A DNA stretch of 64,000 nt, from the sequence record PZ154897.1; one strand, 5' to 3'. Below the pieces are notes generated by a model that ran no database searches, was not told where the DNA came from, and worked only from the letters and a program-made list of their open reading frames with translations. This DNA comes from a phage. Below, one piece after another: positions 1,794 through 53,803 of the stretch; position 1 is the first letter of the stretch; each line of letters begins with the position of its first letter. The position numbers were made by a program, and so were the translations under genes.

Positions 1794-1803
1794 TATTTAT
1801 TCC

Positions 1804-17469: not shown

Positions 17470-17777
17470 CGTAAATTCCCTGCAATTGGTATACTAACAA
17501 TACGCCCAGTATCTAAAATTCGCTGATATAATCTTTGTGTGTCTACATCAGGCTTAACATGTTTAACTTCTATTTTATTAAACCAAAATTTACGTGGAGT
17601 CTCAACTAATCTTGGAATTCCCTTGCCTAAAGCTAGTTGATACTGCTCTTTAAGAGTGGTAAATACTTTGTCAGCAATATTCCATTCAAAAAATACAGCA
17701 GGACGATGTTCATCAAGTGGAACTGGCGCCGTAAATCCGTCTTTGTCTCGGTAAACTATCGCATATACATAAACCAT
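17466..17777 (-). CDS. hypothetical protein (103 aa)
   Basis: ORF; ATGA overlap with dda. Confidence 0.55.
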   Translation of the reverse strand: MVYVYAIVYRDKDGFTAPVPLDEHRPAVFFEWNIADKVFTTLKEQYQLALGKGIPRLVETPRKFWFNKIEVKHVKPDVDTQRLYQRILDTGRIVSIPIAGNLR

Positions 17778-17778
17778 A

Positions 17779-18525
17779 TTATCCTCGGATAAGTTTAAAA
17801 ATTGAACAATTCAGCGGGTATCCTCTTTTCAGTTTAAGTTTATCAATAAAAGACAAATTTTGATACCGCTCTACACCTTGAATAATTTTATCACACATAT
17901 CATATTGCATTTCTGCTTCTGACAGCTTTTTCACAGTTTTCCAATCCGAGCCTTTAAGAAGAACGTTCAATTTAACAACTTCAGCGCCTTCTGCTATACG
18001 AGAACCATCAATACGAGCTTTGAGTGCTACAATCGTTAGCTTAACGTCAGAAGTTTGTTTTGATTTAGAAAGCTGAGAAATGTGTTCAATTCGGTTTTCA
18101 CGTTTTTTCTGTATAGCTTTAATTTGATTATAAGTCTTTTTGATTTTAGCCCATTTCTTTTCATCTAAATTTAGTTTATGAACTTTTTTCGCAGATGAAC
18201 GACCAATTCGCAAAGCAAATAAATCACGCTTTTCAATCAACTCTTCTAAAGTATAATCAGAACGAAATGTATTATACTTTTTCTTTACTGCAATAACATT
18301 CCCTTTAATGTATCCAACATTATTATCAAAACGTTCTAATGATAATTTCTCTCCTTCAATACGATTATCAAAAGGTTCTCCTGAGTAAGCGCAAACTTTC
18401 TGATCTAAAATGTTCTTAATGTAATTGAAGTCTAAGTTAAAATCTTTAGAACGTCTTTTAGCAGATGCCTGAGTATGCTCTAAACGACGTGTAATTTTAC
18501 GAATTTGATTTTTAGACAGTTTCAT
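17779..18525 (-). CDS. srd: Srd-like protein (248 aa)
   Basis: size and position between modA and dda as in T4. Confidence 0.6.
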   Translation of the reverse strand: MKLSKNQIRKITRRLEHTQASAKRRSKDFNLDFNYIKNILDQKVCAYSGEPFDNRIEGEKLSLERFDNNVGYIKGNVIAVKKKYNTFRSDYTLEELIEKRDLFALRIGRSSAKKVHKLNLDEKKWAKIKKTYNQIKAIQKKRENRIEHISQLSKSKQTSDVKLTIVALKARIDGSRIAEGAEVVKLNVLLKGSDWKTVKKLSEAEMQYDMCDKIIQGVERYQNLSFIDKLKLKRGYPLNCSIFKLIRG

Positions 18526-20950: not shown

Positions 20951-21422
20951 TTGTTTTACCTAAAACAATAGTAGGAGCATCGTCAAATTCATGAATTTTT
21001 AGCAATTTTGGATTTAAATTATTCCATACATAATAAATAAAGTATGATAAAGCATCTTCACTCGCAATTATAAATTTATTTCCTTCATTTATTTTCCAGT
21101 CATATACTGAATCGTACGAATAAAAAGATAAAGGATTACCATTATATTGTTCTGCGCTAACATTAATGTATTCGGATTTAGTAAATGCTTCAATTGCTCT
21201 AAACGGACTATTTGGCACAGTTTCAATAATTCCGATCTTTTTAAGTTTTATTTCAGCATCTTCTGGAACTGGCATTGAAACGAAATTTTCTACGAGATAC
21301 ATAGGGTTACGATAACCCTTATCAATCATTACGGCTACAGTAATTGGAACATCTTTAGCAAACGACATGCTATTACTGCTAATATACATTTCAAACAAAA
21401 TCGCTTCCATAATTTTCCTCAA
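20925..21422 (-). CDS. hypothetical protein (165 aa)
   Basis: ORF. Confidence 0.55.
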
Positions 21423-22297: not shown

Positions 22298-22506
22298 AAT
22301 AAACTCCTTTATTGTTTAATTACAGATGTATTTATATCAATCTTCAATGAAAACTTGTGCCAGGAATTCATGCTCATCTTGAATTTGTTTATATAAAGCC
22401 ATTACAGCATTTATGTTAGAGCTATCTACTTTAAGTTGATAAGCATACCACTCATATAAATTAATTAAAGCTTTTTGACGTCTAATAAATTCTTCTTTGG
22501 ATATTT

Positions 22507-22707
22507 TCATTTTGAATGCTCTATAATTAATTTTAAGGCTTCTTCACTTACAAAAATTTCGTCAGGGCTTTCTTCTGCAACCCAATCAACCATACGAAGC
22601 TGATTAGATAAGAGCTCATATGTGAGCTCCTTGTCATAATCTTTAAATAGCTGGTCAATACGTTTCTTGTGGGCTTTCTTAAGTTGACGTTTATTTAAAC
22701 GAGCCAT
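22507..22707 (-). CDS. hypothetical protein (66 aa)
   Basis: ORF. Confidence 0.5.
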   Translation of the reverse strand: MARLNKRQLKKAHKKRIDQLFKDYDKELTYELLSNQLRMVDWVAEESPDEIFVSEEALKLIIEHSK

Positions 22708-23225
22708 TAATAACCTCGGTCTTGACGAGCGAAATTTTCAGCATTTTTCAGATAATAAAGTTTAAAGATTTCTTCAGCTGACATTCCAAGAGCAATGAAT
22801 TTATTCATGAAAAAGTGAAATTGATCAATCAGTTCAAATTTAATTTCAAGTTGATCTTCAGGAGATAAATCTTGAATTTTCTTGGATTGCATTTCAGAAT
22901 AACGTTTCTTCCAAGGTTTCCATACAGCAGAAGCTTCTTTTTCACCATTACTCATACCACCAAGAGAAGTATATAACTCGCGAGTTTCGTCTGCGATATA
23001 ATCGTCTTGGTTTCGCAGCCAAGCAAGAACTTCTCCTGCAGTTTCAAGTGAATCGGGATGACGATTTGTTTCTGGTTTATCATTAGCCAAACGAATCTGT
23101 AAATGCCGCTGCATGTCAAGCATAACCTGCAATGGGTCAATACTGTGCATAATATACTCAGCATATGCACGATTTGCTTTATCAACACCTTCGATCAAAT
23201 GAGCACATTCATTAAAGTGAGCCAT
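22707..23225 (-). CDS. 56: dCTP pyrophosphatase (dCTPase/dUTPase)
   Basis: MazG-like ORF; size and synteny next to dam; start at internal ATG uncertain. Confidence 0.8.
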   Translation of the reverse strand: MAHFNECAHLIEGVDKANRAYAEYIMHSIDPLQVMLDMQRHLQIRLANDKPETNRHPDSLETAGEVLAWLRNQDDYIADETRELYTSLGGMSNGEKEASAVWKPWKKRYSEMQSKKIQDLSPEDQLEIKFELIDQFHFFMNKFIALGMSAEEIFKLYYLKNAENFARQDRGY

Positions 23226-23285
23226 TAGTTTTCCTTTCAATTCATTAATAAGTTAAATAATTATATCATTTGAGTATGTAAGCAA

Positions 23286-24077
<792 letters not shown>

Positions 24078-24134
24078 TCATTTATTGCAGCAAAAACGAA
24101 TTGTGATAAATATTATTTTTAAGGAGGACAGCGC

Positions 24135-24335
24135 ATGGTACAAAAATTAATGGCACTTGTTAATGCCATCAAAGGTAATAAAAAACGTATAGCTTTTACT
24201 ATTTCTGCTATGATAGGAATTTTACTTTGGAATTTTGTTTTATCGCCAGTTGCTATTGCTCATGGCGTTAGTATTCCAGTAATTACTCTTGATACATTCG
24301 TAGATTTAGCATTTGCTTTGGTTGGGTTAATTTAA
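24135..24335 (+). CDS. small membrane protein (66 aa), plus strand
   Basis: strong SD taAGGAGGacagcgcATG; two hydrophobic segments; convergent with gene 61. Confidence 0.5.
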   Translation: MVQKLMALVNAIKGNKKRIAFTISAMIGILLWNFVLSPVAIAHGVSIPVITLDTFVDLAFALVGLI

Positions 24336-25360
24336 ATCTTAGCATATTTAGATAGCCGCATTTTAGCCATCAGCCCCTGCGCAATATTATTTTTCATATA
24401 TTCCATAATTTGTTCAGGGGTTGCACCTTCCTTTCTAATCATATCATTGACATCTTTTGATTTCCAGGGAGATTTATCCCAAAACATAACCCTTTCTCCT
24501 GCATCAACTAATTTAGTCATTCGTTTAATAGTGTCAGGGTGACGAGGTTCATTATCTAAAACCCATACACGTCTATCTTTAAATGGAACAATTTCTAGGT
24601 CTAATTGACCACCAGTAATAGCTATACCATTTTCAATAAAAAGTGAATCTATAGGTCCTTCTAGAACATATACATCACCATCTTTAACCCGTTCGACACC
24701 ATAGATTTTTGTTGCCTCAGGATAAGCTTTGATGGTGATATATTTTTGAGGAGCATCTTTCTTTAATGCGCGTCCTTGAAAAGACTCAGCTTTTCCATTA
24801 GCATTATAAATTGGAATAACAAGACGAGGCTCAGGTATTTCCTTTTTATATGTTCCTGGCGCTATACTATTAACTAATTTAGGCCATTCGGTTGTAAACC
24901 AAAGATATTTCCATTTATCCTTTGGAATACAGCGAGCTTTTACATATTTTATAATTGGATGGCCTTCCGCCAGTTTATCTAATCTAACACATGACGGAAG
25001 AGATTTAATTATTTTCTTCTCAGGTTGTTTAGGAAGTTCTTTAGGTTTTTCTACTGGACGACTTTTACCTTTTTCTTTTCTTATTTCAAAGATATACTCA
25101 CGATATAAATCAGGTTCAAACTCCTTTAGATATATTCCGATTGGTGCATGATAGTTACAGTTATAACAATGAATATTTCCTTCATTATTATCACCATAAT
25201 ACCATCCACGGGCTTTATTTTGGTCGGTTTTTGAATCTCCACAAACAGGACATCTAAACCGCAATTTAAAAGTTGAACTATTATTTACTTGTGTGAATTT
25301 AGGTAAATGAGCTAATGCACGGTATGCAAACTCATTATCAATCCAAGGTATTGATGACAT
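24332..25360 (-). CDS. 61: DNA primase
   Basis: 342-aa ORF, T4 gp61 length; N-terminal Cys4 zinc motif; TOPRIM region. Confidence 0.93.
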   Translation of the reverse strand: MSSIPWIDNEFAYRALAHLPKFTQVNNSSTFKLRFRCPVCGDSKTDQNKARGWYYGDNNEGNIHCYNCNYHAPIGIYLKEFEPDLYREYIFEIRKEKGKSRPVEKPKELPKQPEKKIIKSLPSCVRLDKLAEGHPIIKYVKARCIPKDKWKYLWFTTEWPKLVNSIAPGTYKKEIPEPRLVIPIYNANGKAESFQGRALKKDAPQKYITIKAYPEATKIYGVERVKDGDVYVLEGPIDSLFIENGIAITGGQLDLEIVPFKDRRVWVLDNEPRHPDTIKRMTKLVDAGERVMFWDKSPWKSKDVNDMIRKEGATPEQIMEYMKNNIAQGLMAKMRLSKYAKI

Positions 25361-25528: not shown

Positions 25529-26155
25529 TTAACCTCTATTCATAAAAGCATTAAAAATTTGGTCATCAATAGAAACATTTACTTTAGACTGTTTTTCTGA
25601 TGGTAATTCATATCCACATATTACAATTTTGTGATCAATATCAAAATACACAGAAGCAATATGATTAATGATGTTTTCAGTAAAGTCTAAATCAACATCA
25701 ATATCTTTTTGACCAAAGCCCAAAGGATAAATAATGCGAGTAATTCGATTATCTTTAACAAAGATTCCACCGACATACTCTGTACTGCGTTTAAAGTCTA
25801 CACGCCGACGAAATGAAAAATATTCAGGCTCTTTATGAGCTCGGCTCATAGGGCACAACGAATAACTAGAATAAGAGATGTCAAATCCTACGCCTTCAAT
25901 ATGAACTAAATTGTCATGATTAAACCAATTATAATCATATGCCAAGTCCATTAGATTGTCATATGTGAAAGGCACCGGATTAACATCATTGGTCACAAGC
26001 ATATAATTAGCAACTGCTATAATTTCATTATTTTTAACGAATACAAACCGTGGCTGATGCGAATGGCCTGGACCTGCGTTTTCACGATTAATGATATAAC
26101 ACTGGGCACCTTTATATTTGTACGTGTCTTTACACTTGTGCATTTGATAAAGCAT
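25529..26155 (-). CDS. hypothetical protein (208 aa)
   Basis: ORF. Confidence 0.55.
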   Translation of the reverse strand: MLYQMHKCKDTYKYKGAQCYIINRENAGPGHSHQPRFVFVKNNEIIAVANYMLVTNDVNPVPFTYDNLMDLAYDYNWFNHDNLVHIEGVGFDISYSSYSLCPMSRAHKEPEYFSFRRRVDFKRSTEYVGGIFVKDNRITRIIYPLGFGQKDIDVDLDFTENIINHIASVYFDIDHKIVICGYELPSEKQSKVNVSIDDQIFNAFMNRG

Positions 26156-38883: not shown

Positions 38884-38891
38884 TATAAATA
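38884..38891 (+). promoter_or_regulatory. T4 late-promoter box TATAAATA upstream of plus-strand HNH gene
   Basis: exact TATAAATA about 34 nt before the ATG at 38925, then AAGGA SD. Confidence 0.5.
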
Positions 38892-38924: not shown

Positions 38925-39641
38925 ATGAATTATAAACTAATTTATGAAAAGTTAATCTCTAATGCTAAATCTCGAAAACTTGATTGCTATACTGAATCTC
39001 ATCACATTATACCACGCTGTTTAAACGGTAGTGATGATGCTTCAAACTTAGTAGATTTAACGCCAGAAGAGCACTATGTAGCTCATCAACTTTTAGTAAA
39101 AATTTATCCTTCTGAACCAAAATTAGTCTATGCTGCTAACATGATGACAGTTTCTACGAAATACGCTAAACGTAACAATAAAACTTTCGGCTGGATTCGT
39201 CGTAAACTCTGGGAAATAGAAAAGAATAAAGAGTTCTCCAAAGAGACACGAAAGAAAATGTCCGACGCAGTAGCTAATAAAGCAAGACTAACTTGTCCAC
39301 ATTGCGGTAAGTCTGGATTAAGCGGGAATATGAATCGATGGCATTTTGATAACTGCCCAAATCATCCCAATCCTAAAGTTAGACCGCCAATGTCTAAAGA
39401 ACACAGAAATAATATCTCAAACGGGCTTAAAGCAATCGTTCTTGAAGAAACATCCTGCGAATTCTGCGGAATGATAGGCAAGAAATGCGTTATCGCAGCG
39501 CATAGAAATTTCTGCAAGAAAAATCCAAATGGACGCAAGAAAACTGAAAAGACTGGTACTTGCGTCCATTGTGGTAAAGTTACCACTTTCGGAAATTTAT
39601 CAAGATGGCATAATGATAATTGTAAATATAAACCTAGCTAA
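38925..39641 (+). CDS. free-standing HNH homing endonuclease with C-terminal zinc-finger repeats
   Basis: ESHHIIPRCLNGSDDASNLVDLTPEEHYVAH HNH motif; repeated CxHCGK...RWHxDNC units; opposite strand to all neighbours. Confidence 0.8.
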   Translation: MNYKLIYEKLISNAKSRKLDCYTESHHIIPRCLNGSDDASNLVDLTPEEHYVAHQLLVKIYPSEPKLVYAANMMTVSTKYAKRNNKTFGWIRRKLWEIEKNKEFSKETRKKMSDAVANKARLTCPHCGKSGLSGNMNRWHFDNCPNHPNPKVRPPMSKEHRNNISNGLKAIVLEETSCEFCGMIGKKCVIAAHRNFCKKNPNGRKKTEKTGTCVHCGKVTTFGNLSRWHNDNCKYKPS

Positions 39642-53762: not shown

Positions 53763-53803
53763 AATAAACCCTTACCTTAAATAGATAAGGGTATTTATTA
53801 TTT

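Follow-up and report, generated by a model that had tools for sequence, protein, structure and literature searches.

The dam.1 locus and its neighbours

The window, that is, the whole 64-kb stretch of DNA analysed here, is a genome segment of a T4-like Tequatrovirus. A short ORF, dam.1, lies between the dam methyltransferase gene and the primase gene. The features of the locus are the following.

22707-23240, minus strand: gene 56
23286..24068, minus strand: dam methyltransferase gene, head-to-head with dam.1
24105..24112, plus strand: predicted late-promoter (gp55) box GATAAATA, 7/8 identical to TATAAATA, with G instead of T at -13
24118, plus strand: predicted late transcription start; with the box at -13..-6, +1 falls about 6 nt after the box, leaving a 17-nt leader
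24121..24127, plus strand: Shine-Dalgarno (SD) sequence AAGGAGG, read directly from the sequence
24135..24335, plus strand: dam.1 CDS, 66 aa, small membrane protein of phrog_2024; translation MVQKLMALVNAIKGNKKRIAFTISAMIGILLWNFVLSPVAIAHGVSIPVITLDTFVDLAFALVGLI
24147..24172, minus strand: terminator-like hairpin followed by TTTTTG, with an 11-pair stem (-15 kcal/mol, z -1.8), inside dam.1 codons 5-13
24332..25360, minus strand: primase gene 61, 342 aa, converging on dam.1

The minus strand carries all of the neighbours (56, dam, 61, 61.1, 61.2, sp, 61.4, dmd, and 41). The ORF map therefore bears out the sequence-only reading of the region, which had described a lone plus-strand gene converging on the primase gene. 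The overlap of the two stop codons, also pointed out there, is confirmed: the dam.1 TAA (24333-24335, plus strand) overlaps the primase TAA (24332-24334, minus strand). The dam/dam.1 intergenic region is 66 bp long and contains the late box and the SD sequence. The same reading had reported a strong SD with a 6-nt spacer. AAGGAGG is present, but the spacer to the ATG (24128-24134) is 7 nt, not 6.

Conservation, distribution and annotation

The homology search that had been proposed as a check placed the dam.1 product in the family phrog_2024 (E=1.9e-30, residues 2-66 on profile positions 1-65 of 65). By tblastn, 693 phage records were matched, 686 of which hold an intact ORF with a coverage of at least 80% of the protein. 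Tequatrovirus copies are 85-100% identical, those of Mosigvirus about 54%, and those of Gaprivervirus 46%. Absence or disruption in close relatives had been named as an outcome that would speak against the gene; the ORF is intact in relatives, including T4. Further loci, 13 in number, were checked, and an ATG-started ORF is intact in all of them. The SD core, (A)GGAG(G), is kept upstream of dam.1 in all lineages.

The dN/dS ratio (Nei-Gojobori) between the window copy and those of T4, T6, and OE5505 is 0.13-0.19, and it is 0.2-0.5 between genera. Nucleotide differences are concentrated at third codon positions (4/1/10 at the three positions against T4, for example). This pattern of substitution indicates that dam.1 is a genuine protein-coding gene under purifying selection. 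The short length and the lack of annotation in the reference T4 records would fit an ORF that arose by chance in non-coding DNA between dam and gene 61. Nine genera have, however, kept the frame, length, start, SD, and protein motifs, and by these comparative data the chance origin is effectively refuted.

An exhaustive HMM/profile search of 1.84 billion representative proteins gave eight matches, all from the same family. Three of these (P0077, P0078, and P0079) are distant, 22-29% identical, and also match phrog_2024, at 1e-13 to 1e-19. Their contigs are from divergent T4-like phages with a single plus-strand gene between the gene-56 block and the primase gene. A word-indexed search with the single protein and with the profile returned Tevenvirinae copies alone and no informative relative. 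Using the distant members as tblastn queries added Klebsiella Jiaodavirus, Salmonella S16 (Gelderlandvirus), Citrobacter Moon, Proteus phages, Edwardsiella and Enterobacter Kanagawavirus, and Dhakavirus.

In nine genera and three metagenomic lineages, no plus-strand gene other than dam.1 lies between the gene-56 block and the primase gene. The convergence with the primase gene is seen also in Mosigvirus, Gelderlandvirus, Kanagawavirus, and metagenomic relatives. The region downstream of the primase gene was examined in Krischvirus, Slopekvirus, Pseudotevenvirus, Muldoonvirus, and Lazarusvirus. In these five genera a gene on the same strand starts 7-36 bp past the primase gene, indicating that dam.1 is absent from the locus. 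This gene is gene 56 except in Lazarusvirus. The family thus appears to be restricted to Tevenvirinae, where, judging from its synteny, the gene goes together with the 3' end of gene 61. The presence of dam is not required, because T6, Mosigvirus, and Gaprivervirus have no dam at the dam.1 site.

The T4 sequence NC_000866 contains an intact dam.1 copy at 17738..17938, whose product is 92% identical to the window protein. Position, strand, length, and the overlap with the gene 61 stop are the same as in the window. The sequence-only reading knew of no gene between dam and 61 in T4. This holds for the reference annotation, as the 309 bp separating the two carry no gene in NC_000866 or AF158101, but not for the T4 sequence itself. 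The T4T record HM137666 does name the gene dam.1 and describes its product as a "hypothetical protein" (ADJ39749.1). Older names are RB32 ORF030w and VR7ORF033w. All NCBI records label the protein of this family hypothetical. Other labels are "putative membrane protein", meaningless PHASTER-derived names in T2 and T6 records, and the automatic UniProt name "Holin", which UniProt and BFVD give to the OE5505 copy (A0A482MZV5). Literature searches found no paper mentioning dam.1.

The gene is therefore already known as a hypothetical family in databases, named dam.1 in one T4 record, and it is ordinary in kind. It is not a new kind of system, and in hundreds of genomes automated pipelines have predicted the ORF as a hypothetical protein. 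Its omission nevertheless leaves a genuine hole in the annotation of T4, the reference phage. Most T4 transcriptomic and proteomic studies assign reads or peptides to the features of NC_000866, and since that record has no entry for dam.1, they do not see the gene.

The surroundings of dam.1 vary. The spacer between dam and dam.1 is polymorphic, as seen between the window (24069-24134), T4 (L003 3127-3238), and the locus L001 (1669-2333). A 45-bp segment present in T4 between dam and the box is missing from the window; in X01416, this segment is annotated with the "potential early promoter P(E) 17.40". ZJUN4, OE5505, and T2-type Tequatroviruses have an extra 561-bp minus-strand gene between dam and dam.1. 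On the other side, a 124-aa ORF is inserted between dam.1 and the primase gene at the locus L010 (5204-5578, minus strand), and a homing endonuclease gene is inserted there in Bp7 (L029 1481-2236, minus strand). The extra genes in these two lineages mark the dam.1/primase junction as an insertion hot spot.

Some copies deviate in other ways. In VR7 (L006), a second, unannotated copy of the Dhakavirus (Bp7) type, starting MGTLFYQIWKLTSKKDKKLIMGFLALDIFLWNLLVVPIAATQG, lies directly after VR7ORF033w at about 1701-1970 on the plus strand; it is without the usual stop and reads on into the primase gene. In VR25, tblastn gave two places for the family. Edwardsiella phage PEi20 has an intact member, MTKKPLFRLNNHKKKVVIVSVGVLVVLWNFIIIPVAASNGLVLPPVTIEHLRTAATLMLGF, at 1220-1405 of L028 on the plus strand, with a CATAAATA box and without annotation in NC_028683. 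In the T6 record AP018814 (L004 1501-1503), ATT replaces the ATG start of all other copies, and the annotation begins at Met6. Metagenomic contigs with a T6-type upstream region carry ATG. The T6 ATT may be a strain mutation or a sequencing error, and with such a start dam.1 may be poorly expressed in T6.

Promoter type and late boxes

T4 late promoters are recognised by gp55 through the sequence TATAAATA at -13..-6 relative to the start (PMC1524935). A list of 50 T4 late promoters contains 32 with the perfect sequence and nine with A at -13; most of the remainder deviate at one position (PMC2988020). T at -13 is poorly conserved in T4 relatives (PMC1524935). The dam.1 box GATAAATA matches the late promoter at seven of the eight positions. 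The deviating position is the variable -13, and no -35 element is required.

A NATAAATA sequence ends 15-33 nt before the dam.1 ATG, upstream of the SD sequence, in every lineage examined except S16. The core ATAAATA is identical in all lineages checked, again except S16, while the sequence around the box is unalignable between genera. The variants of the box are distributed as follows.

GATAAATA: window, T4, L010
AATAAATA: T6-type, Mosigvirus, Jiaodavirus
CATAAATA: Gaprivervirus, L009, L013, PEi20
TATAAATA, perfect consensus: Dhakavirus Bp7, Kanagawavirus Q7622
TATTAAATA, variant: S16

The orientation of the gene points in the same direction. T4 early and middle transcripts all run counterclockwise, which corresponds to the minus strand here (PMC2988020), so a plus-strand gene is expected to be late. 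It is most probable, with good support from this comparison, that dam.1 is a late gene transcribed in a gp55-dependent manner. The predicted 17-nt leader is no more structured than shuffled sequence (z = +0.98), and no 5' regulatory hairpin was found in it. A public T4 dRNA-seq data set is available (GSE255091, bioRxiv 10.1101/2024.04.04.588121); it is mapped to NC_000866.4 and gives 150 T4 TSSs, of which 22 are antisense.

Late boxes are rare in the window. On both strands, NATAAATA was found seven times against about 41 expected, which is a ~6-fold depletion. TATAAATA accounts for two of these (10.7 expected) and VATAAATA for five (30.5 expected). The seven sites are listed below.

1794-1801, minus strand
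21032-21039, plus strand
22329-22336, minus strand
24105-24112, plus strand, upstream of dam.1
25726-25733, plus strand
38884-38891, plus strand
53792-53799, minus strand

Four of the seven end 22-33 nt before an SD sequence and ATG, and the genes behind them are soc, the endonuclease VII gene 49, a homing endonuclease gene, and dam.1. The soc gene is a capsid gene, and gene 49 of T4 has a late promoter. The three other genes are late genes in early regions, and they resemble dam.1 in the distance between the box and the ATG (22-33 nt), the short leader, and the dispensability of a -35 element. They differ from dam.1 in having T at -13, as in TATAAATA, instead of G; for dam.1 the promoter is predicted here from sequence. 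The homing endonuclease gene is a second plus-strand gene among minus-strand genes (38925-39641, 238 aa, phrog_655 E=1e-68), preceded by a perfect TATAAATA box at 38884-38891. As to the remaining sites, those at 21032 and 25726 have no ORF behind them, and that at 1794 overlaps a start codon.

The sequence-only reading had proposed a sigma70-like promoter for dam.1. The quoted letters are all present, with TTGCAG at 24085-24090 and, after a 15-nt spacer, ATAAAT at 24106-24111. The proposal is not supported. A sigma70 consensus scan showed no site on the plus strand ahead of the ORF. The two hexamers are 15 nt apart rather than 16-18 nt, and ATAAAT fits TATAAT at only 3/6 positions. TTGCAG is not conserved as a -35 element either. 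In T4 it is separated from the -10-like element by the 45-bp insertion, and it is absent in T6, Mosigvirus, Gaprivervirus, and others. The upstream comparison showed no -35-like element in other genera. ATAAATA alone is conserved. A sigma70 early promoter was therefore rejected.

The membrane protein and its possible roles

The 66-aa product was described from the sequence as having two hydrophobic segments. Both are present. The first, at residues ~19-42 (Kyte-Doolittle 2.0 over 19 residues), has the length needed to cross a membrane, whereas the second, a helix of 13-14 residues at 52-65, does not. The AF2 model, built with a 23-sequence alignment, has a pLDDT of 80.7 and shows helices at residues 2-12, 16-42, and 52-65. 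In six lineages, the protein has one hydrophobic 19-mer (Kyte-Doolittle 1.8-2.7). The flank N-terminal to this 19-mer has 5-6 K/R, and the C tail of 25-28 residues has 0-1. The C-terminal 25 residues of the window protein have none and end in ...ALVGLI. Hydropathy and the positive-inside rule give good support for a location in the inner membrane with the N-terminus in the cytoplasm. The C-terminal helix could instead cross the membrane a second time as a short segment.

Twelve lineages, down to 17% identity, were compared. W32, P38, and G44 are invariant, and N33, A40, and P48 are nearly so. An acidic residue occupies position 52 in 11 of the 12. If the positively charged N-terminus is in the cytoplasm, the core, W-N-(F/Y)-x3-P-x-A-x3-G, would lie at the outer end of the transmembrane helix and in the loop that follows. 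Such a pattern of conservation suggests that the protein binds another membrane protein specifically, through helix-helix packing or an interface.

Searches for a characterised relative gave little. Pfam (E up to 10), NCBIfam, and PADLOC showed nothing significant for dam.1. Foldseek comparison of the AF2 model with viral and PDB libraries, and comparison of the profile with PDB sequences, returned the own family or noise. The antiholin RI, Imm, and Spackle are likewise small phage proteins at the inner membrane or periplasm, which is the location predicted for dam.1, but their genes are on the early strand while dam.1 is on the late strand, and there is no detectable homology. The N-terminal membrane segment of RI contains FVLSP, a motif shared with dam.1. 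The likeness to T4 RI prompted by this motif was rejected, as the hhalign probability is 0.3%.

Taken as a whole, the reading that we consider probable is that dam.1 encodes an inner-membrane protein expressed from a late gp55 promoter, which would contact a partner in the membrane, and that its transcript would run antisense into gene 61. The late promoter (GATAAATA, 24105-24112), dependent on gp55/gp33/gp45, would start the transcript at about 24118. The unstructured 17-nt leader with the strong SD sequence would drive translation. In the protein, the basic amphipathic N-terminal helix is predicted to stay in the cytoplasm, and the single transmembrane helix would carry the invariant core at its outer end. 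The K/R-free tail of ~25 residues, with its short hydrophobic helix, would lie at or in the periplasmic face of the membrane. The protein would then contact another membrane protein in the late, envelope-directed phase of infection. Candidate processes in this phase are lysis timing, lysis inhibition, membrane integrity, and membrane-bound head assembly. This mode of action is suggested by the placement of the conserved positions at the outer end of the helix and in the loop, and binding to a membrane partner during the late envelope programme is the most tentative part of the reading. If the prediction is correct, the few late envelope proteins listed for T4 are joined by a further one, a small membrane protein.

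A more specific form of this reading, for which we see only a modest chance, is that dam.1 is an unrecognised late envelope factor. It might tune lysis timing or lysis inhibition as a partner of holin T, RI, or the spanins, or else be a membrane factor for head assembly; its transcript might also silence the primase mRNA. Were this so, the escape of dam.1 from 60 years of T4 genetics and omics could be ascribed to the absent reference annotation and to the composition of the protein. Residues 19-66 contain no K/R, and after residue 18 trypsin would leave one hydrophobic peptide of 48 residues, so tryptic proteomics would miss dam.1.

Other roles were weighed against these. The sequence-only reading took dam.1 for an early-region effector of superinfection exclusion or of the host envelope, of the Imm/Spackle type, driven by the sigma70 hexamers quoted above. 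A small membrane protein within an early-gene region, with the spackle gene about 2 kb away in the same cluster, would suit such a role. The promoter evidence opposes it, the gene is in the late-strand orientation, and no similarity to Imm, Spackle, or RI was detected, even though the Pfam library searched at E up to 10 includes the T4 Spackle model PF25676. The comparative evidence puts dam.1 in the late class, and an early effector is very improbable. A holin or pinholin-like lysis protein, in line with the UniProt and BFVD name of the OE5505 copy, is another possible role. Like class II holins and pinholins, the dam.1 protein is small, helical, membrane-embedded, and probably late, and it has an AxxxG-type motif. 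Distant members of the family weakly match phrog_11161 (E=0.012) and GTA_holin_3TM (E=0.1). Those matches are, however, below threshold, and with the window protein neither Pfam nor PHROG yields a holin match. Unlike holins, dam.1 ends in a hydrophobic C-terminus with 0 K/R and without a charged hydrophilic tail. It is also outside the lysis cassette: the neighbours are dam and the primase gene, and no endolysin or spanin gene adjoins. T4-type phages already possess holin T, and the NCBI records all say hypothetical. As the charged C-terminal tail, the lysis cassette, and a significant profile match are missing, dam.1 was not filed as a holin, and this role is considered unlikely.

It is also conceivable that the selected function is that of the RNA, with the ORF incidental: a late promoter antisense to gene 61 would shut off or destabilise the mRNA of early replication genes. 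The stop codons overlap, and no plus-strand terminator was found within about 650 nt after dam.1 in the window or in T4, so the late transcript should continue into gene 61 in the antisense direction. No non-coding element is better conserved than the promoter box, and both strands of T4 are transcribed at different times at several sites (PMC2988020). These points are set against a strong purifying selection on the amino-acid sequence, the conservation of the SD sequence and start codon, and protein motifs kept down to about 20% identity. L010, moreover, has a perfect hairpin with a U6 tract, an intrinsic terminator, directly past the dam.1 stop, and another gene separates dam.1 from the primase gene in L010 and Bp7. 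The constraint on the protein, the L010 terminator, and the intervening genes in the two lineages make it unlikely that antisense transcription is the main selected function. With the late membrane protein as the preferred reading, the antisense transcript may additionally help to silence early messages, that is, it may have an effect besides the function of the protein.

Two other structures were noticed around the convergent ends. The minus-strand hairpin at 24147-24172 lies about 160 nt past the primase stop; T4 has it, but Mosigvirus ST0 does not. Judging from its form, it may serve as an intrinsic terminator, or as an attenuator, for gene 61 transcripts ahead of dam. Within the last about 30 codons of the primase gene (24371-24424, either strand), AGCCCCUG pairs with CAGGGGUU in a stable long hairpin. 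The fold of 24320-24440 has -28.6 kcal/mol (z = -3.3), and only one of 200 shuffled sequences was as stable.
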